Positions 6,299 to 64,000 of a stretch of 64,000 bases of DNA are shown here, piece by piece. Numbering within the stretch: the first letter of the stretch is position 1; every line of letters begins with the position of its first letter. The notes beneath the pieces were generated by a model. It had not been told where the DNA came from and ran no database searches. It saw only the letters and a program-made list of their open reading frames with translations. A program made the translations under genes and the position numbers. Location: positions 34,660-98,659 of the forward strand of contig JAJYOJ010000002.1 in the NCBI GenBank assembly GCA_021796235.1, read 5' to 3'. The DNA is from a bacterium (lineage in GTDB: Bacteria; Patescibacteriota; Microgenomatia; UBA1406; GWC2-37-13).

Positions 6299-6637
6299 AT
6301 GTTAGTTTGTTATCATTGTAGAAAAGGTCTTCTTTACGGCCGGAGTCACACTCACCACAGAGGTGTTGCGGGTGGACGCTGGAAGAAAAGAGCGCCCAAA
6401 ACCAGGCGCATCTTTGAATCTAATCTACAAAGAGTAGATATTTTAGTGGGTGGGCAAGTCAAGCGCGTGGTGCTCTGCACAAGGTGTTTAAAACGGGTTA
6501 AAAAGGACATTAAAGACGGCAAAAAACCGTTTGTTCAGCTAGCTCGTTTGAGGACCAAATCCGAAACTCGAAGCACGAAACTCGAAACAAATCCTAAGCT
6601 TAAAAAAAACAAAACAAAAACTGTTTCGAAAATTTGA
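6299..6637 (+). CDS. rpmB: 50S ribosomal protein L28 with basic C-terminal extension
   Basis: N-terminal CxxC...GxxxSH pattern and ...FESNLQRV...VCTRCLKR resemble L28. The tail contains a 14-bp x2 tandem repeat at 6562-6589. Confidence 0.65.
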   Translation: MLVCYHCRKGLLYGRSHTHHRGVAGGRWKKRAPKTRRIFESNLQRVDILVGGQVKRVVLCTRCLKRVKKDIKDGKKPFVQLARLRTKSETRSTKLETNPKLKKNKTKTVSKI

Positions 6638-9820: not shown

Positions 9821-10041
9821 AGTCTATTTTCGTGATCACCCAGAACAATTCGATTGCCGCGCACTTCTATTTTAGTTTTTTTAACCTCTACCATAACGTC
9901 TCCGATATCTTGAGCTAAAGTGATGAGGACATTATCTATTTTATTATTAATCCTAGCTTCGACTTTTTTAATATCTTCTTTCGTTACAAAAGTTTTTTTA
10001 AATTCAGCAACAAGATTTTTTATATCAATTTTCGTAAGCAT
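9787..10041 (-). CDS. Small coiled-coil protein (hypothetical)
   Basis: 84-aa charged, helical-looking ORF at the 3' end of the minus-strand operon. Confidence 0.4.
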   Translation of the reverse strand: MLTKIDIKNLVAEFKKTFVTKEDIKKVEARINNKIDNVLITLAQDIGDVMVEVKKTKIEVRGNRIVLGDHENRLQKLEMNPRAL

Positions 10042-52613: not shown

Positions 52614-52670
52614 AGTCGTATGTTACAGTATATTTTAATTTAGTTGGTTGTCAAGTATAATAGAGACGAA

Positions 52671-53417
52671 ATGTCAGGTCATTCTAAGTGGTCACAGATT
52701 AAGAGAAAAAAAGGGATAGCGGACCAGGCGCGCGGTAACCTTTTCTCCAAACTTTCTCGCATTATTACGCTTGCAGTTTTGGAAGGCGGAGGCATTACCG
52801 ATCCAGATAATAACGTGAAGCTTCGTTTGGCTGTAGAAAAAGCCAAACAATCCAATATGCCAAAGGAGAATGTTTTACGCGCGATAGAGCGGGGAGTCGG
52901 TCCAAATAAAGCCATGATCAAAGAAGTCGTGTATGAAGTTTTTGCTCAGGAAGGTGTGTCCCTTATAATTTTAGCTACATCTGACAATGTTAATAGAACT
53001 TTAAGCGATATAAAAAATATCTTGGAGCGAAACGGCGCGAAACTCGCCGGTCAAGGTTCTGTGGATTATCTTTTTCAAAAATGCGGTTTGGTTACATTTC
53101 ATAAATCAAATACTTCGGAAGAGAAGGTTCTAAATTTTGCCGAGAGATTAATGGCGCAAGACATTGATCAAGATAACGAACTTTATTACGTTTATATACC
53201 TTTCGAGGCTCTAGGACACGTCAAAGATAATTTGAATGGATTGGTTCCAGACGTTGTAGAACTTGATTACAGGCCAAAAGCTAAGATTGAGGTGAAAACT
53301 TCGAGCGATGCCAAAAAAATTCTTAATCTTGTAGATTCGTTAGAAGAACTAGACGATGTCCACAAAGTTTTTGGAAATTTTGATATTCCCGATGAAACAA
53401 TTCAATCACTTGCTTAA
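52671..53417 (+). CDS. yebC: YebC/PmpR-family DNA-binding regulator
   Basis: MSGHSKWSQIKRKKG N-terminus and family-typical length. Confidence 0.9.
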   Translation: MSGHSKWSQIKRKKGIADQARGNLFSKLSRIITLAVLEGGGITDPDNNVKLRLAVEKAKQSNMPKENVLRAIERGVGPNKAMIKEVVYEVFAQEGVSLIILATSDNVNRTLSDIKNILERNGAKLAGQGSVDYLFQKCGLVTFHKSNTSEEKVLNFAERLMAQDIDQDNELYYVYIPFEALGHVKDNLNGLVPDVVELDYRPKAKIEVKTSSDAKKILNLVDSLEELDDVHKVFGNFDIPDETIQSLA

Positions 53418-54207
53418 ATTCATAGAAAAAAAAGCTGTAAAGATTGAGAAGCGGCTGCGTTTCGCTTTATCCTCTTTGTGTTTGGCGCTCCTACTGCTTT
53501 TTTCAACTTTCTTCTATTTTGATAAGGCTTTTATTTTTATTCCATTATTGGTGGTAACGACATATGTACTAACGTATTTTTCGGTTTTGGAAGGGATTCA
53601 TGACATTGAATGGTTTACCTTATTTTTTATGCCGATCGTTGTCTCTGTCTCATTTTATCTTTTCTACTTTCTTTTTCCGGTAAGGTGGTTGACGAGATTA
53701 CCATTTATCGTGATTTATGGAATTTCGACATACGCAATTCTTTTAACGGCAAATATTTTTAACATCGGGGTAGAGAAGAGCCTTCAACTTTATCGAGCTG
53801 CCTTTTCCGTTAATTTTTTTTATCAAACGGTGTGCAGTTTTTTACTTTTTAATATTATTTTATTTTTTCGTCTAAATTTCTTATACAACGCAATTTTGGC
53901 GGGGGGAATAGGGTTTTTGTTGGATATTCATCTGTTTTGGACATTAAAGCTCGATAAAACAATTGAGAAGCGACTTTTACTTTTTGCTTTCCTTATCGGT
54001 AGCGTAATTTTTGAAGCAGCATCTCTAATGTCGTTTGTGCCCATTAACTCCACAATATTTTCTCTTTTTTTGACCGGGATCTTATATTCCCTAAGCGGGC
54101 TAAGTTACAGCTACCTTGACCAACGGTTATTTAAAGAAACGATTCGTGAATATTTAATTGTGCTCGGATTTATTTTTGTAATCACATTATTATCTATAAG
54201 TTGGTAA
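53392..54207 (+). CDS. Polytopic membrane protein (hypothetical)
   Basis: About 8 hydrophobic helices. No motif recognised. Confidence 0.55.
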   Translation: MKQFNHLLKFIEKKAVKIEKRLRFALSSLCLALLLLFSTFFYFDKAFIFIPLLVVTTYVLTYFSVLEGIHDIEWFTLFFMPIVVSVSFYLFYFLFPVRWLTRLPFIVIYGISTYAILLTANIFNIGVEKSLQLYRAAFSVNFFYQTVCSFLLFNIILFFRLNFLYNAILAGGIGFLLDIHLFWTLKLDKTIEKRLLLFAFLIGSVIFEAASLMSFVPINSTIFSLFLTGILYSLSGLSYSYLDQRLFKETIREYLIVLGFIFVITLLSISW

Positions 54208-54381
54208 GTTCTTTATGTAAATCTGCCCGGCGGCGAGTAGAGAACAGGGTAGAGGCCCAGACTAGATGGGTAAGGGAAGTGTACGGACGTGAAGTATTTA
54301 TCCTATAGTATATTAAATACTATAGGGTATTAAATAAATGTAAGAATCCGGCTCCAAACTTAATATTATTAGTTTTAAATC

Positions 54382-54682
54382 GAGGCTAATTTAATAAGTT
54401 TAGTAAGCTACTACGCTCCAAAGTTGAGTATCACTCTATGTGGATAACTGCCAGGATTTGAGGCTAAAAATTAGAATTTAGATCTGTATGACGCTCTAAA
54501 TTACATTCATTCTTACATTGTTTAGCGTTCTAATTTATTAAAATTTAGCCTCAAAAATTATATTTTAGACCAATATTATCTTCTAAACTTAATAGGGTTC
54601 TATTTCTCGTGCGTTCCTTATGTGCTATTTCTTAATAATTTAGCCTCGAAATCGATAGTTTAGAGCAATTATATGTTCTAAA
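54382..54682. repeat. Degenerate array of four 41-42-bp units, each ending in a 24-bp TTTAGN-N12-NCYAAA palindrome
   Basis: The units are 54382-54422, 54460-54500, 54546-54587 and 54641-54682. Each has a core gaggcta (units 1-2) or its complement tagcctc (units 3-4) plus an A/T tract, followed by tttag(a/t)-N12-tc(t/c)aaa. Confidence 0.7.
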
Positions 54683-55259
54683 TATAACGACGTTTCTAGC
54701 CTCAATTTAGCCTCAAAAAAAGAGTGCGAGAGAGGTTAAAAAAAGGTTGAAATAACTGAGTTATAACCGGAGAAAATAAAGTTTATTCACGTCATGTTAA
54801 GAGAAGAGAAAGATTCTGTTCTCTCCTAAAATGTAGTAATAAAAAATAAAAATACCCCAATCGGCAGCCGGCTAAAAAATGAAATACAACTCCGGGAGCA
54901 GAAGCATGTATAACGTCGTAAATTGTATCTTTTACGACGTCAACCGTGGCTAGTTCCAGGCGAGTGGTTTAAAATTAGAAATTAATAATTTTAAATTTAT
55001 TTAAAAATAATTCATTTCTTTCTTTTCTCCCCTAATTTATCTCTCTGTTATCTTCAGAGATCCGGGGTCCTTTTTAGCCCTTTAAAACCTGCTAACTCTC
55101 CCCCGGATTCCGCCTTTTTTAGCCTTATAACAATCTAATTCTTCCCTATCCCCTAAAGAATTGCTAGATTGGGGAGTGCTTAAAAATAAGCCAACATAAT
55201 TATTGGAATGATAATCAGGCACTTGATACGGGCTAACTTTAATATATAATCTATCTATC

Positions 55260-56189
55260 GTGCAGGAAGGATACAGTCCAGTAAAACAGGCTAATTTGAA
55301 ACAAGGTTTAATCGACAGAGCATTAAATATTATTGCCAATTCAGTTGAGATGGATTTCCCTCAGGATACATTACGTCAGACCGCTCTTCAAATAGCCTCC
55401 GGTATTCCGGTCATACTTGTTTCCAATCATCAAAGTCATGTTGACGTAATGCCTTTAGCGGTTATTGCTAATCAGGTCAGAAGAGCCGCCAATGATTATA
55501 TCTCTACCGGTAAATACCCTCGTAAAAAGGCATTTTCTCATTTCTTATGTCCGATGGCCTCTTCGGTAGTGACTGGTGGACAGACGCAGGACATCACAGC
55601 CGGATACATCAATACCAGAGATTGGTTATTAAAAAACGGAATCGTGACAGTGCCGGTCACTCGTGACAGAGACATAAAATATTATGGAGGTCAAGGACTT
55701 CCGCCAACAATCGATTCTATGAGAGCTCTTTTAACCGCTTTTAAAGATGGTCACGGATTAGCTATAACTATTGCCGGTACCGTCGAGGAAGGCAGGCGGA
55801 AAAAAGGTGGTCGCTCGGGAAAAAGAATCGGACTGAAGAAGCTCTCTAGCAAAAATTTGCTGACTGAAACTGTCGTGAGACAACATGCGGCCGGTATTAA
55901 TACGTTGATTGTCCCAATTGCCATTTCGGGCACATACCTCTTATTTGATCCCGATGAAAGAAAAGTTACTTTATCTTCGGTTAGAACTTTAGTTAGAAAT
56001 TTAGTCCCTTTCTCTTTAACCAAAGCTACGACTGTTAAAGTAGCACAACCGATAATGACCGAAGAACTATGGGCAGATGCACCGGAAGATGAGGCAGATC
56101 TTCATACTTTTTTGAATAACCGTTTATTGGTAATTATTGCTAGCAAATTACCTCCTGAAGCACGGGGTGAATTCGCCAACATGGTTTGA
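55260..56189 (+). CDS. PlsC/LPLAT-family acyltransferase
   Basis: The NHQSHVD (HX4D) motif and a later AGTVEEG block. GTG start; an alternative ATG is at 55350. Confidence 0.65.
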   Translation: MQEGYSPVKQANLKQGLIDRALNIIANSVEMDFPQDTLRQTALQIASGIPVILVSNHQSHVDVMPLAVIANQVRRAANDYISTGKYPRKKAFSHFLCPMASSVVTGGQTQDITAGYINTRDWLLKNGIVTVPVTRDRDIKYYGGQGLPPTIDSMRALLTAFKDGHGLAITIAGTVEEGRRKKGGRSGKRIGLKKLSSKNLLTETVVRQHAAGINTLIVPIAISGTYLLFDPDERKVTLSSVRTLVRNLVPFSLTKATTVKVAQPIMTEELWADAPEDEADLHTFLNNRLLVIIASKLPPEARGEFANMV

Positions 56190-56207
56190 TTAAGATAAGT
56201 GTCAATA

Positions 56208-57308
56208 TTACACTCCTCTTCGCCAAGCTAAATATTTTTCGTAAAGATAAGTTAAATAATATTTTGGTGAGATAATGAAATCCTGCGTTGCTAAATAATC
56301 GAGCTGTTTTCCGCCGAAACCTTGTTTAAAGAGAGTTAAACCAGTCCAAGCTTTAGGAGTTCGACCCGGTTCGTGTATACCCCAAAAGTTATAAAGTTTA
56401 CAACCACGTTTTTTGGCTTCCTTGATTGCTTCCCACTGAAGCAAATACGGAACCGGAATTTTGCTGTGGATCGAGGCGCCCTGATGATAAAAGGAAGTTG
56501 TTTTTGTAAAAATAATTAAAGCCGAAGCTAAGGCGGTGGGTGTCGAGGCGTCAGGGCTCCTGGCAGCGCGCAGATCAGGCGATATTCGCCGCCTGTCAAG
56601 CACTGACGGGAAAGACGAAGAGACAGGTCCAGCCGCCCCAGTCCTTACTTTACCAAATAAAAACAAGGCATTTCCGGTTTTATTAAACGCGTCAAACTCG
56701 TTTCTGATGAATTCTTCTGAAAACGGAATAAAAGCTTCACGTTTAGTCGTTTCCTCATAGATTTTGTAAAAATCATGGACGGCATTTTTGTCGGTTCTTT
56801 TTTCTATAGTTACTCCATCACGGTCGATCCTTCTAATTAGATAGCGGGTTGTCTTTCGCATGTCTGCCAAAAGTTCCTCTTCTGATTTTTCAAGCGGCAG
56901 GACCCACATCCGTTCGGCATGCATATATATTGGTCCTTCTTTAAACCCTAAGGCTTTAAAAATTTTTCTATTTGTTTCCGTAGCTTCGAGATTAGGCGCA
57001 ATACGAATGAACGAATAGTTTTCCTCCCGAGCCAGTTTTAAAAGATAGTTTTTGAAAGCGCTAAAACAATTCTGAATTGTTAGCGGTCCGTATGGAACAA
57101 ACAAAAAATTGCCCCGCCGAGTTTTCATCTTTTCAACCAAAGCGATGCCAATGAGCTTGTTTTTGTCATAGATTCCCAATCGTAATATTTCGTAGCCTTG
57201 AAGTTTTTCGAACTCTCCCCATTCCCAAGACTGAAGGAATATAGGTGATCCGGCTTCTTCAAAAAAATTTTGCCAGATTTTTTTATCGGTAACCTCTTTG
57301 ATTTTCAT
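56208..57308 (-). CDS. FemAB-family peptidoglycan interpeptide-bridge aminoacyltransferase with an in-frame GC-rich insertion
   Basis: N-terminal WQNFFEEAGSPIFLQSWEWGEFEK and C-terminal YNFWGI are family-like. The segment RTGAAGPVSSSFPSVLDRRRISPDLRAARSPDASTPTALAS is encoded by repeat 56538-56639. Confidence 0.7.
   Translation of the reverse strand: MKIKEVTDKKIWQNFFEEAGSPIFLQSWEWGEFEKLQGYEILRLGIYDKNKLIGIALVEKMKTRRGNFLFVPYGPLTIQNCFSAFKNYLLKLAREENYSFIRIAPNLEATETNRKIFKALGFKEGPIYMHAERMWVLPLEKSEEELLADMRKTTRYLIRRIDRDGVTIEKRTDKNAVHDFYKIYEETTKREAFIPFSEEFIRNEFDAFNKTGNALFLFGKVRTGAAGPVSSSFPSVLDRRRISPDLRAARSPDASTPTALASALIIFTKTTSFYHQGASIHSKIPVPYLLQWEAIKEAKKRGCKLYNFWGIHEPGRTPKAWTGLTLFKQGFGGKQLDYLATQDFIISPKYYLTYLYEKYLAWRRGV
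56538..56639. repeat. Family-2 GC-rich element, copy A (inside the FemAB gene)
   Basis: The head gggtgtcgaggcgtcagggctcctggcagcgcgca matches the rc of 58527-58561 at 29/36. The tails gacgggaa...cagg(t/a)cc also match. Confidence 0.75.
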
Positions 57309-62699: not shown

Positions 62700-62786
62700 G
62701 GAGAAGTCGCATAGTGGACGAGTGCGTACGCCTGGAAAGCGTATAAGACCGCAAGGTCTTCGCGGGTTCGAATCCCGCCTTCTCCG
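62700..62786 (+). tRNA. tRNA-Ser (anticodon GGA)
   Basis: Acceptor GGAGAAG/CTTCTCC, anticodon stem TACGC/GCGTA with loop CTGGAAA, long variable arm AGACC-GCA-GGTCT, T arm GCGGG-TTCGAAT-CCCGC. Confidence 0.85.
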
Positions 62787-62887
62787 CCCTGATTTGGAGC
62801 GTCTCAGCGACCTGAATACTACCATTAAACAGCTCGCTGGGGCTTGCTCAAAATCTTGGGATTCAAGACTTTTCGGTTTTACATCCT

Positions 62888-63194: not shown

Positions 63195-64000
63195 CTAAAT
63201 TATTCGCAGTTCCCGGTTATGAAGAATGAATTTGGTTCTGATAACAACCATGATTTGCTGTCGCTCCTCCGGAGTTCCGGCTTTGAGAATATGGAGAAGG
63301 TATGATTTTGCCATTTCTGGCGATAAGGTACCAGAAGCTACTGATACCTCCGCCTCTTCTTGCAGATTGCCGGTTATATATTCCTGATGAAGCACTTGCG
63401 TTCTTAATGTATGGAACCGCTCAATCTCTGATTTGATGGATTTAGATAGCAATCGTTCGTCGATTTTAATCTGGTCAATATGGGAAATCAACTGTTTAAT
63501 CAAGTCTGCTTCGGTGATGTACGGTTCTTCACAATCATAATCAATGGCTCGGGCACAGTGGTAATAGATATGTTTTGAGTACCCGTTATATTTAAGTTTC
63601 TTAAACTTTTCCTCAGCGGTTACACTTCCTCCGCATGATCCACATTTGCAGACGGATTTAAAAGGAAAGATGTTTTTGTGCCATTCCCTGGGAGGAACTA
63701 TTAGTTGATTTTGAACTTTATTAAATATTTCTTTTGTTGTTAATGGTTGATGTTTGCCGGTATATTTCATTCCATTAAAGGTAAAGACACCGTAGTAAAA
63801 AGGGTTCTTAAGGGTAGCATAAATACGACTTAATGATAGTTTCTTTCCATTTTTAGTAGTAAAGCCTATGGTATCAAGCCATTTCTTGATGGTTCTTCCC
63901 GAATGACCACGGTTAGCTACCCTGTGAAACATTTGGGTTACAACTGGTCCTCTCTCTTTATCTATGTCAATCCATTCAATACGATTATTCTCCATAATGT
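63195..64000 (-). CDS. Large serine recombinase; recombinase and zinc-ribbon domains only, with the catalytic N-terminal domain beyond the window edge
   Basis: ...SLSRIYATLKNPFYYGVF...GKHQPL... is the recombinase domain. CKCGSCGG...YYHCARA is the zinc ribbon, followed by a coiled-coil tail. The frame stays open to position 64000. Confidence 0.75.
   Translation of the reverse strand, partial: IMENNRIEWIDIDKERGPVVTQMFHRVANRGHSGRTIKKWLDTIGFTTKNGKKLSLSRIYATLKNPFYYGVFTFNGMKYTGKHQPLTTKEIFNKVQNQLIVPPREWHKNIFPFKSVCKCGSCGGSVTAEEKFKKLKYNGYSKHIYYHCARAIDYDCEEPYITEADLIKQLISHIDQIKIDERLLSKSIKSEIERFHTLRTQVLHQEYITGNLQEEAEVSVASGTLSPEMAKSYLLHILKAGTPEERQQIMVVIRTKFILHNRELRII

Follow-up and report, generated by a model that had tools for sequence, protein, structure and literature searches.

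A stretch of 64,000 nucleotides of DNA (64 kb; hereafter the window) harbours a single-copy, cis-acting chromosomal locus of ~0.8 kb that is conserved across the class Microgenomatia, with four repeat units, which are homologous copies of one composite DNA site, as its central module. On balance, the favoured explanation is a protein-binding DNA array within a cis-acting locus of the replication or recombination type. As to function, we infer, tentatively, a replication control region that combines origin and terminus on chromosomes replicating mostly in one direction; under this leading reading, replication of these chromosomes may both begin and end at the locus.

Patescibacteria account for a large share of bacterial diversity, and to our knowledge almost nothing is known of how their chromosomes are replicated and segregated. 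If the leading reading is true, the locus would be the long-sought replication origin, together with the terminus and its dimer-resolution site, of one-direction Microgenomatia chromosomes, and would account for the reported one-strand G/C disparity of Microgenomatia. It is a concrete candidate site: lineage-wide, single copy and combining a DnaA box, iteron-like sites and an Xer-type dyad. With a candidate locus named, the question of origin and terminus becomes directly testable using existing complete genomes and read coverage. Even if the origin reading fails, a previously undescribed non-coding element of ~0.8 kb is at hand, with an unusual design in which the composite site is rigid and its hexamer occurs in either orientation at one position; no report of the motif or of DUF5656 was found in the literature.

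Architecture of the locus

The locus spans window positions ~54236-55016, of which the initial annotation, describing an array of four units, had covered only the middle third. A conserved order was found along it: a purine-rich box, TATAG repeats, a DnaA box, one to five composite units, a constant-length spacer, a 28-bp dyad, a second purine-rich box and an AT-rich tract (Table 1).

Table 1. Features of the locus and of its conserved left-hand genes in the window.
Feature	Position	Strand	Remarks
yebC gene (TACO1/YebC family)	52644-53417	+	Pfam PF01709, PF20772; conserved left-hand gene block
DUF5656 multi-pass membrane-protein gene	53356-54207	+	Pfam PF18900; locus begins just past its stop codon
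5′ purine-rich box (AGTAGAGAACAGGGTAGAGG ... GGGTAAGGGAAGTG)	54236-54282	+	Corresponds to the conserved RGTAGAGRAGAGGGNAGNGG block that opens the element in the 25-sequence alignment
ACGGACGTGAA box	54283-54293	+	Conserved ACGRACGTGAA columns in the 25-sequence alignment
TATAG repeats	54299-54329	.	CCTATAGTA (54302-54310) and TACTATAGG (54318-54326), 13-bp inverted pair
Unit 1	54382-54422 (feature 54379-54423)	+	GAGGCTA-N10-TTTAGT-N12-TCCAAA, degenerate dyad; other-genome GAGGCTA-type profile E = 5.7e-6
Consensus DnaA box TTATCCACA	54439-54447	-	Between units 1 and 2; perfect 9-mer
Unit 2	54460-54500 (feature 54457-54502)	+	GAGGCTA-N10-TTTAGA-N12-TCTAAA; profile E = 3.8e-9
Unit 3	54546-54587 (feature 54543-54590)	+	TAGCCTC-N11-TTTAGA-N12-TCTAAA; profile E = 6.7e-7
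Unit 4	54641-54682 (feature 54638-54685)	+	TAGCCTC-N11-TTTAGA-N12-TCTAAA; profile E = 1e-8
Two extra TAGCCTC copies without dyad	54697-54703 and 54708-54714 (feature 54697-54719)	+	Partial profile match, E = 0.034
Middle purine box (AAGAGTGCGAGAGAGG)	54720-54735	+	Aligned with conserved AGAGAAGTG, alignment columns ~900-910
Spacer, last unit to 28-bp dyad	54736-54910	.	Sequence variable, length conserved
28-bp dyad ACGTCGTAAAT-TGTATC-TTTTACGACGT	54911-54942 (dyad 54913-54940)	.	11-6-11 geometry
3′ purine box (CAGGCGAGTGG)	54958-54968	+	Aligned with conserved GGAGAAGTGG, alignment columns ~1195-1210
AT-rich tract with degenerate terminal unit	54966-55016	.	Direct repeat matches the terminal unit to unit 2

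The 5′ purine-rich box recurs in the distant loci L121 and L136, and the ACGGACGTGAA box is duplicated in several loci. TATAG repeats number two to four in other genomes, at variable spacing and as both direct and inverted copies, an arrangement that counts for recognition at the DNA level; Levy-type loci carry GATATAGT direct repeats. For 36 of 43 loci, the stretch extracted from the last unit to the dyad is 300-345 nt long (overall range 287-445) and, as it includes a fixed flank of ~100 nt, the spacer itself is mostly ~200-245 bp; in the window, the dyad lies 230 bp downstream of the units, and the spacer contains a purine/pyrimidine inverted repeat at 54800-54827. Across 43 aligned elements, AT content is highest (bins of 0.75-0.80) immediately to the right of the dyad and the adjoining purine box, and in other loci a GATTGTTATAACAATCTAAAT unit occupies the position of the AT-rich tract.

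Distribution and gene neighbourhood

With both units and dyad, the locus was found in at least 43 genomes of ultra-small Patescibacteria, all of them Microgenomatia (Roizman-, Levy- and Gottesmanbacteria), and one Roizmanbacteria locus (L014) is without the dyad. Each stretch examined has it once, and ~400 kb of related sequence contain no further occurrence of the motif. To its left, an order of four genes is conserved, encoding a LytR_C-like protein, a TPR protein, YebC and DUF5656: yebC is in the same place in 32 related loci as well as in L134 and L136-L139, and a DUF5656 orthologue lies immediately upstream of the element in 41 loci other than that of the window (tblastn). Among the 36 loci with a left neighbour called, this is a same-strand open reading frame of 257-293 aa in 34, the remaining two (105 and 113 aa) being cut by the locus end.

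To the right, the neighbours belong to many unrelated families, which bears on whether the units form a local operator or promoter array for a flanking gene; an operator array was among the identities that the initial annotation had offered. Dyad sites are typical of operators, and the next gene of the window (55260-56189) is co-directional. However, in 17 of 33 related loci the gene to the right points towards the element, so that in about half of them the array lies between converging genes, in a gap without a flanking promoter; in the window, it stands 580-880 bp from the start codon of the next gene. Given these positions and the unrelated right-hand families, an operator array is highly improbable.

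Nor do the iteron and centromere-like classes named in that annotation apply as such. Its suggested co-occurrence with a Rep or Par gene was seen neither in the window nor beside the array in any related locus, and no rep, par or dnaA gene was found within 10 kb in any locus examined. Rep-family matches were absent among the conserved LytR_C-like, TPR, YebC and DUF5656 neighbours; Par families, such as the parAB or sopAB genes to which parS and centromere arrays are linked, were likewise absent among the neighbours of the array.

Several further candidates were tried. Neighbouring proteins gave no structural or family matches that would make them binders of the units, and YebC is only a lead. 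No tRNA or tmRNA was found at the locus, and small conserved open reading frames were rejected, the dyad region having stop codons in some lineages and invariant wobble positions in others. A phage or mobile origin was also rejected: the 28-mer is absent from viral contigs, where 11 matches to the unit pattern are single chance matches, and the only viral match with several 7-mer copies (L123) lies inside coding sequence.

A rigid composite unit with a hexamer inverted in place

All four units described initially are present with their sub-structure, at start-to-start distances of 78, 86 and 95 bp, and the constant 24-bp span of the half-sites can be read in every one. Exact TTTAGA-N12-TCTAAA has three matches in 64 kb, all in the array, against none expected (100 shuffles of the window). 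The enrichment is significant also in the AT-rich control proposed with the annotation: among 20,000 local shuffles, which preserved the dinucleotides of the 34%-GC gap itself, none contained three palindromes, six copies of the 7-mer or four composite units. The 7-mer GAGGCTAA occurs six times in the window, five of them within the locus.

Profiles built solely from the units of other genomes recovered exactly units 1-4 from the 64-kb window, with no further significant match in it. Unit 1, whose dyad has two mismatches, is not above chance by pattern alone, yet it is detected by the other-genome profile. The units are degenerate (units 3 and 4 are 74% identical), and unit 4 is the best conserved of the family, holding the invariant columns of the 25-sequence alignment.

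Each unit is rigid, with GAGGCT or its reverse complement at a fixed position, followed by an A-tract and then by the 24-bp dyad, the half-sites of which are invariant across 90 units and without covariation. Two earlier descriptions were refined by this comparison. The flip of the leading 7-mer between units is real, but the part that is inverted, in place, is the hexamer GAGGCT/AGCCTC: the spacing to the dyad is uniformly N11 in all 69 TAGCCTC units, GAGGCTA units have N10 (28) or N9 (4), and in orthologues of unit 2 the hexamer is often inverted. The N12 cores, described as variable, do differ within the window, but a weak consensus YYRWTATWACRN emerges from the 90 units of 43 loci.

The units are not CRISPR repeats, as the initial annotation had stated: they are degenerate, the array is orthologous across species with position and spacer lengths conserved, and no Cas families lie nearby. 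A CIRCE-like resemblance of TTAGCCTC/GAGGCTAA was rejected, spacing and order being wrong. TIGR-Tas arrays have two alternating repeats of 8-12 nt, 9-nt spacers and a 36-nt period, with a Nop-domain Tas gene (PMC12045711); a TIGR array was rejected, as the period of the locus is 78-95 bp and no Nop-domain gene lies nearby.

Recognition as double-stranded DNA or as RNA

The units might alternatively be protein-binding hairpin modules of a non-coding RNA gene of ~0.75 kb, or of a long 3′ extension of the yebC-DUF5656 transcript, the RNA acting together with the neighbouring membrane protein in the manner of OLE RNA and its membrane partner OapA. The orientation of the locus and its adjacency to the DUF5656 gene are strictly conserved, it stands alone in gaps between converging genes, its purine-rich boxes are all on the same strand, its spacer is constant in length and variable in sequence, and a block of 28-34 nt shows a degree of conservation usual for RNA genes. 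Of these features, the one-strand purine boxes and the fixed adjacency to the membrane-protein gene would suit RNA too, and so count against the favoured explanation. Folding is also better than that of shuffles, with z ~-1.8 on either strand and hence no strand asymmetry, and with z -2.9 for the array of the window; structured spacers were rejected, as hairpins of differing sequence occur in some loci and are missing from many, including the window.

No Rfam match was obtained for the window and 18 related loci at either gathering or permissive thresholds (E up to 5). RNAalifold returned the dyad hairpin only, without covariation; within the inner 12 bp of the unit dyad, complementarity is not above base-frequency expectation (for example, 30 observed versus 26 expected, and 41 versus 43), and an extended hairpin there was rejected. 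A nested fold pairing U1 with U4 and U2 with U3 is predicted for the window but not conserved, and the long-range helices of the window survive in only 55-69% of cells, with covariation not above shuffles (42 of 500 reach the score). Read as RNA, the dyad would contain C-A mismatches, and the strand that has them differs between lineages. An in-place inversion of the hexamer alters an RNA sequence, not a double-stranded DNA site; an exact DnaA-box consensus would be unexpected in RNA; and neither a positionally conserved sigma-70 promoter nor a terminator was found.

Invariant half-sites without covariation, together with the in-place inversion of the hexamer, thus favour sequence-specific binding of double-stranded DNA over RNA structure, and an RNA gene or transcript extension is judged unlikely. 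From the initial proposal of binding sites for a dimeric protein, the core is retained, repeated sites for a sequence-specific, probably dimeric, DNA-binding protein being the best reading, while the specific classes attached to it are not. The units would be read on double-stranded DNA by sequence-specific proteins, with a dimer recognizing the dyad one helical turn beyond the hexamer and A-tract.

The 28-bp dyad and Xer-family genes

The 28-bp dyad was found in 43 loci, is near-invariant across 25 aligned genomes without covariation, and occurs once in the window and once in each of the 20-kb loci. Its geometry is that of dif/Xer sites, with two 11-bp inverted arms and a 6-bp centre; the arms are invariant and the centre is more variable, and the Levy-type dyad has unequal arms (ATGTCGCACAA / TTTTACGACGT). 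In 10 loci, representing at least three lineages, a co-oriented Xer-family gene (E ~1e-73) is found downstream at a distance of 0.5-4.6 kb; none was found within 9-10 kb rightward in the window or in L134. A canonical dif was rejected, as three dif patterns matched the window weakly and best at places other than the dyad. With respect to the terminus, where skew would be at its maximum, no sign change was seen at the dyad in 42 pooled and four 20-kb loci, and a terminal position fits only if the chromosomes replicate in one direction.

These features could also describe a site-specific recombination site with a role other than dimer resolution at the terminus, in which the dyad would be an Xer crossover core and the repeats accessory sequences for assembling a synaptic complex, on the model of plasmid cer/psi or of the arms of phage attachment sites. 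The 11-6-11 dyad with its variable centre, the constant-length spacer between repeats and core, the Xer genes downstream and the hexamer in both orientations, like arm-type sites, are consistent with this. However, no second copy of the dyad lies within 20-64 kb as a partner, the dyad is unlike the dif consensus and absent from viral contigs, and the DnaA box is left unexplained. Moreover, accessory sequences of cer and psi are roughly 160-200 bp, a length far exceeded by the ~580 bp at the locus. Such a recombination site is very unlikely. Two Logan contigs ending exactly at the dyad were rejected as signs of recombination, being best explained by a 31-mer common to co-occurring species.

DnaA box, GC skew and replication

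Of the 43 elements, 28 contain the perfect DnaA box TTATCCACA, without exception in one orientation, and it is ~76-fold enriched there (28 in 39 kb of elements versus 3 in 320 kb of flanks). It lies between units 1 and 2 in many Roizman-type loci, and in 14 loci 37-39 bp before the next dyad. Most Roizman-type loci, including that of the window, have one box only, and one-mismatch box-like matches are not enriched in the window; Levy- and Gottesman-type loci have two to three DnaA-box-like motifs within 60 bp.

Strand-corrected GC skew, pooled over 42 loci, is +0.048 on the left and +0.052 on the right, with 1-kb bins in agreement; it is of the same sign on either side in the four 20-kb loci (L136-L139), the strand of the element is G-rich in 39 of 42 loci, and the left 54 kb of the window has a skew of +0.067. 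The skew keeps its sign across the locus, which excludes both a bidirectional origin and a terminus of the classical kind. For the former, the left-hand skew has the wrong sign, and a dnaA gene, which like dnaN commonly though not universally adjoins oriC, is missing, with no DnaA signature motifs in six-frame translations of the window and no Bac_DnaA in the gene tables of L001, L134 and L136-L139. For the latter, the cumulative skew of the window peaks at 54-56 kb and genes converge there, but no flip occurs in the 42 related and four 20-kb loci. A polar genome-wide motif (KOPS- or SRS-like) was also rejected as the explanation of the purine boxes, no strand bias being seen in the window.

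Under the leading reading of a combined origin and terminus, the DnaA box and iteron-like units would serve as an origin of the plasmid type, a polar fork barrier or both. Forks would depart rightward, in the yebC-DUF5656 direction (G-rich strand), and return from the left, leftward forks being blocked. Chromosome dimers would be resolved at the 28-bp dyad by the Xer recombinase, whose gene in many lineages lies a few kb downstream. Near-linear cumulative skew was reported for three complete Microgenomatia genomes by Kadnikov et al. 2020 (PMC7143001), who did not locate the origin and proposed that origin and terminus are adjacent or that replication is unidirectional. Whole-chromosome one-strand skew is reported only for the order UBA1400, not for the element-carrying lineages, and one related family is normal. 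One-direction replication of a plasmid-derived chromosome is documented in Pseudoalteromonas (PMC7858055). Skew of the same sign is equally expected of an ordinary mid-replichore locus. Two further points count against the explanation: the skew falls to about zero a few kb rightward in the window and in L134, and the AT-richest tract is ~500 bp away from the DnaA box.

The locus might instead be neither origin nor terminus but an off-origin site where DnaA and other proteins assemble, serving initiator control as do datA, DARS and the Bacillus subtilis clusters, or the organization or segregation of the chromosome in the manner of a centromere, possibly with a tether through the neighbouring membrane protein. 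A conserved DnaA box beside other repeated protein sites, the single copy with no motif elsewhere, the lack of a skew flip and the lack of a nearby dnaA gene would all agree with such a site. Yet datA and DARS depend on several DnaA boxes where most Roizman-type loci have one, no par genes are adjacent, and the recombinase-type dyad and the conserved gene order with an Xer gene are left unexplained; we consider an off-origin site improbable.

Comparison with known systems

In iteron-type origins (RK2 oriV, pSC101 ori and Vibrio cholerae oriCII), as at the locus with its one to five units adjoining a DnaA box, one or more DnaA boxes stand beside repeated initiator-type sites, followed by more sequence. 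The order in RK2 oriV, DnaA box then repeats, is that seen here, and such origins often fire in one direction. In contrast to their 17-22 bp tandem iterons, however, the locus has dyad-containing modules of 41-42 bp at 75-95 bp intervals, is without an adjacent rep- or rctB-like gene, belongs to the main chromosome throughout a bacterial class and has its AT-richest tract away from the repeats.

The dif/Xer sites (XerH/difH, XerS/difSL and archaeal XerA/dif) share with the locus a strongly conserved, single-copy 28-bp dyad of 11-bp arms and 6-bp centre, and an Xer-family gene near it in many lineages. In single-recombinase systems, dif adjoins the recombinase gene, whereas here the Xer gene is 0.5-4.6 kb away, with none nearby in the window; in addition, the dyad has no similarity to the dif consensus and does not sit at a sign change of GC skew.

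The datA and DARS sites of Escherichia coli and the DnaA-box clusters of B. subtilis are non-coding, off-origin chromosomal sites that, like the locus, bring together DnaA boxes and sites for other proteins, but they have several boxes together with IHF or Fis sites and are limited to narrow taxa, whereas the locus usually has one box and unrelated motifs. OLE RNA with OapA offers another large conserved non-coding stretch beside a multi-pass membrane-protein gene; its extensive covariation-supported structure, as set out in PMC9723947, is unlike the locus, where no covariation was found.

Arrays of dyad units bound by a dimeric protein are seen in sopC of the F plasmid and in the family of repeats of EBV oriP. 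Their repeats, of 43 or 30 bp, follow one another in strict tandem and are linked to the gene of the binding protein or to a virus, whereas between the units of the locus lie other motifs and spacers whose length is conserved. In EBV, the repeats additionally form a barrier to forks and so render replication one-directional.

Repeat units in a gene-free gap

The four units lie in a gene-free gap of 1,052 bp (54208-55259). Their positions, sub-structure and spacings (78, 86 and 95 bp), as described in the initial annotation, were all borne out on re-reading the sequence, each unit consisting of a hexamer (GAGGCT or its reverse complement AGCCTC) followed by a 24-bp dyad, TTTAGA-N12-TCTAAA. The exact dyad occurs three times in 64 kb, every time inside the array (expected, 0). 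Shuffling the 34%-GC gap 20,000 times with dinucleotide composition preserved never yielded the 3 palindromes, 6 copies of the 7-mer (GAGGCTA or TAGCCTC) or 4 composite units found in the real sequence; the array therefore withstands the comparison with AT-rich shuffled controls by which that annotation proposed to refute it. Unit 1, which carries two mismatches, was not significant as a bare pattern; profiles built only from the units of other genomes recovered it at E = 5.7e-6 and units 2-4 at E = 4e-9 to 7e-7, and matched nothing else in the window.

Distribution and gene neighbourhood

Scanning one genome per species with the composite pattern returned 119 stretches, many of them Microgenomates, Roizman-, Levy- and other Patescibacteria records, in which the 7-mer repeats every 75-110 bp. 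The units and a 28-bp dyad were found together in 43 loci (the window included), and in 41 loci other than the window an orthologue of the membrane-protein gene DUF5656 is immediately upstream on the same strand. The proteins nearest to the DUF5656 of the window are from Candidatus Roizmanbacteria, and homologue searches placed further carriers near Levybacteria and Gottesmanbacteria, so that the locus covers much of the class Microgenomatia. To the left, the order of four genes is kept (a LytR_C-like protein of ~290 aa, a TPR protein encoded on the other strand, YebC and DUF5656). What lies to the right varies from locus to locus (inositol monophosphatase, FemAB, ABC transporters and trehalase among others), and the right-hand gene points toward the element in 17 of 33 loci; therefore, the element is autonomous and not a regulatory region of flanking promoters.

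In the window, the longest yebC ORF overlaps that of DUF5656 by 62 nt. The two genes abut in related genomes (for example, at 9998/10001 in the related stretch L134), which suggests that they form one operon. Fifteen element-bearing records with a Patescibacteria-type DUF5656 are titled 'uncultured Gammaproteobacteria bacterium' (L004, L024, L037, L041, L048, L049, L069, L072, L078, L080, L096, L098, L103, L110 and L113, from binchicken or SRP co-assemblies); their GC content is 27-48%, and the names look like placeholders or errors.

Anatomy of the element

The order of parts was read on the DUF5656-gene strand, from an alignment of 25 loci and inspection of others, and comprises at least five sequence-conserved motif classes. 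The TATAG repeats are present in two to four copies, direct or inverted and variably spaced, and Levy-type loci carry GATATAGT. Spacers between units are quantised in length, at about 31-33 nt or 49-50 nt, and the extract of the long spacer (including a fixed flank of ~100 nt) measures 300-345 nt in 36 of the 43 loci. The 28-bp dyad is near-invariant even between genomes with only about 40% protein identity.

Features of the element and its surroundings in the window; letters give the order of parts across loci
Feature	Window position	Strand	Sequence or remark
yebC (longest ORF)	52644-53417		
DUF5656 membrane-protein gene	53356-54207	+	left border of gap
GC-rich stretch	54218-54260		ctgcccggcggcgag
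(a) Purine-rich box	54236-54282		RGTAGAGRAGAGGGNAGNGG
(b) ACGRACGTGAA and TATAG repeats	54283-54329		CCTATAGTA / TACTATAGG
(c) Unit 1	54382-54422		right half-site variant, TCCAAA or TCCAGA
(d) DnaA box	54439-54447	-	TGTGGATAA, as read on the DUF5656-gene strand
(e) Further units	54460-54500, 54546-54587, 54641-54682		one to four across loci
Extra TAGCCTC copies	54697-54703, 54708-54714		downstream of units, without palindrome
(f) Second purine box			AGAGAAGTG
(g) Spacer			sequence variable, length conserved
(h) 28-bp dyad	54913-54940		ACGTCGTAAAT-TGTATC-TTTTACGACGT
(i) Third purine box			GGAGAAGTGG; terminal unit often next
(j) AT-richest tract			75-80% AT; last part of element
309-aa ORF	55260-56189	+	right border of gap
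Switch of gene orientation	56190-56210		+ to -
tRNA-Ser	62700-62788		
Large serine recombinase gene	63195-63995 and beyond	-	Resolvase, Recombinase and Zn_ribbon domains

In some lineages the spacer ahead of the last unit holds inserted palindromes that are long and perfect, for example GGACAGTTCCTC-GTA-GAGGAACTGTCC (in the related stretches L089, at about 6470-6500 as oriented, and L103, in the spacer), which are absent from the window. The first 40 nt past the DUF5656 stop in the window are unusually GC-rich for the gap, and this window-specific stretch does not align with relatives. Independent short-read (Logan) contigs break off at conserved blocks: L002 and L003 exactly at the 28-bp dyad (window 54939), and L135 70 bp past the DUF5656 gene, at the conserved box that follows its stop. 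These breaks likely reflect branching of the assembly graph, because species that occur together share identical blocks of >31 nt.

DNA site or RNA structure

The outer hexamers of the 24-bp dyad are essentially invariant in 90 units, and the inner 12 bp have a weakly defined consensus whose pairing shows no excess over the base-frequency expectation (observed vs expected, 30 vs 26, 53 vs 43 and 41 vs 43). The distance to the dyad is exactly 11 bp from TAGCCTC (69 of 69 units) and 10 bp (n=28) or 9 bp (n=4) from GAGGCTA, thus the hexamer holds the same six positions in either orientation. Its orientation varies among orthologous units: unit 2 reads GAGGCTA in the window, and roughly half of the relatives in the alignment have TAGCCTC there. 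Such inversion in place keeps a double-stranded DNA site and alters the RNA.

That the locus works as an RNA structure is improbable. In the fold predicted for the window, units 1 and 4 pair with each other, as do units 2 and 3, but only 55-69% of cells retain these helices, and covariation measures are no higher than in shuffles. The sole hairpin reported by RNAalifold is the 28-bp dyad, with zero compensatory change, and the strand of its single mismatches differs by lineage. Moreover, folding z-scores of the spacer are alike on both strands, spacer hairpins occur in some loci only (the window having none), no promoter or terminator was seen at a conserved position and no Rfam family matched. 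With invariant half-sites, hexamer inversion and negative RNA tests, recognition as double-stranded DNA is the better-supported reading. A dimeric protein may occupy the unit dyad, and the hexamer, which lies one helical turn from it, may be contacted by another domain or a second protein.

DnaA box, 28-bp dyad and Xer gene

A perfect DnaA consensus (TTATCCACA) is present in 28 of the 43 elements, in one orientation throughout (28 copies in 39 kb of elements versus 3 in 320 kb of flanks), and Levy- and Gottesman-type loci have one or two extra TTTTCACR motifs within 60 bp. The 28-bp dyad is laid out as 11-6-11, like the core sites of tyrosine recombinases (its arms being unequal in Levy-type loci), occurs once over 20-64 kb, is absent from viral contigs and bears no resemblance to dif consensus sequences. 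In 10 loci, of Levy-, Gottesman- and one Roizman-type lineage, a full-length Xer-family recombinase gene is found 0.5-4.6 kb downstream and runs in the same direction (E about 1e-73 against XerC, XerD and XerA, with XerC and XerD equally near). No Xer gene was found within 9-10 kb of the element in the window or L134. A Roizmanbacteria locus, L014 (5760-5800, minus strand), has units, DnaA box and purine boxes without the dyad; not every genome, therefore, requires the dyad. One alternative for the locus is a recombination site equipped with accessory sequences.

The locus is single-copy, lineage-wide, autonomous and non-coding, and combines rigid composite units with a DnaA box and a recombinase-type dyad, an architecture surprising to the specialist. 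Its grammar is like that of iteron-type origins and its dyad geometry like that of Xer sites, and it fails the defining tests of bidirectional oriC, canonical dif, parS/sopC and TIGR arrays (as defined in PMC12045711), as well as those of CRISPR, which the initial annotation had likewise rejected. Searches of the literature found no description of the locus or of DUF5656. It was grouped with the repeat arrays that proteins bind at replication or recombination loci, and there is a realistic chance that it points to something less ordinary.

GC skew and a model of replication

Cumulative skew in the window climbs over the first 54 kb and levels off after that, and the genes converge at 56.2 kb. 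This first suggested a terminus, yet strand-corrected skew in related loci showed no flip. With the strand effect separated from that of gene orientation, strand skew pooled over 42 loci was +0.048 to the left and +0.052 to the right, and was positive in 1-kb bins on both sides; four 20-kb loci likewise kept one sign (L136 at about +0.12 on both sides). The G-rich strand is that of the element in 39 of the 42 loci. Skew of the same sign on both sides therefore excludes a classical bidirectional origin or terminus. It is exactly what a coinciding origin and terminus would be expected to produce, and would look no different at an ordinary mid-replichore locus.

Near-linear cumulative skew has been reported in three complete Microgenomatia genomes (Ch65, Collierbacteria and Beckwithbacteria), a fourth, more distant genome having normal skew, and an origin adjacent to the terminus or one-directional theta replication was proposed (Kadnikov et al. 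2020, PMC7143001); DnaA is mentioned nowhere in that text, nor is an origin site named. We infer a link between the element and these linear-skew genomes. Through the locus, the published one-strand-skew puzzle of Microgenomatia becomes directly testable.

A combined replication origin and terminus is the leading specific model, and a tentative one. The DnaA box and iteron-like units would work as in plasmid or chromid origins; in RK2 oriV, too, a DnaA box precedes the repeats. The protein-bound array would stop one fork so that replication proceeds rightwards, matching the G-rich strand of the element; the fork coming back would terminate at the array, and Xer would resolve chromosome dimers at the 28-bp dyad. 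Against this model stand the single DnaA box of Roizman-type loci, the absence of an adjacent initiator gene, the distance of about 500 bp between DnaA box and AT-richest tract, the near-zero skew a few kb to the right in the window and L134, and the dyad-less L014. A datA/DARS-like or centromere-like platform is a further alternative.

Gene orientation switches from plus to minus 1-4 kb to the right of the element (at about 14480 in L134), beyond which GC skew falls to about zero in the window and L134. The minus-strand FemAB-DegT-DsbA block has an identical gene order in both. Farther right in the window, the tRNA-Ser and the large serine recombinase gene that follows it may mark the border of an integrated element.
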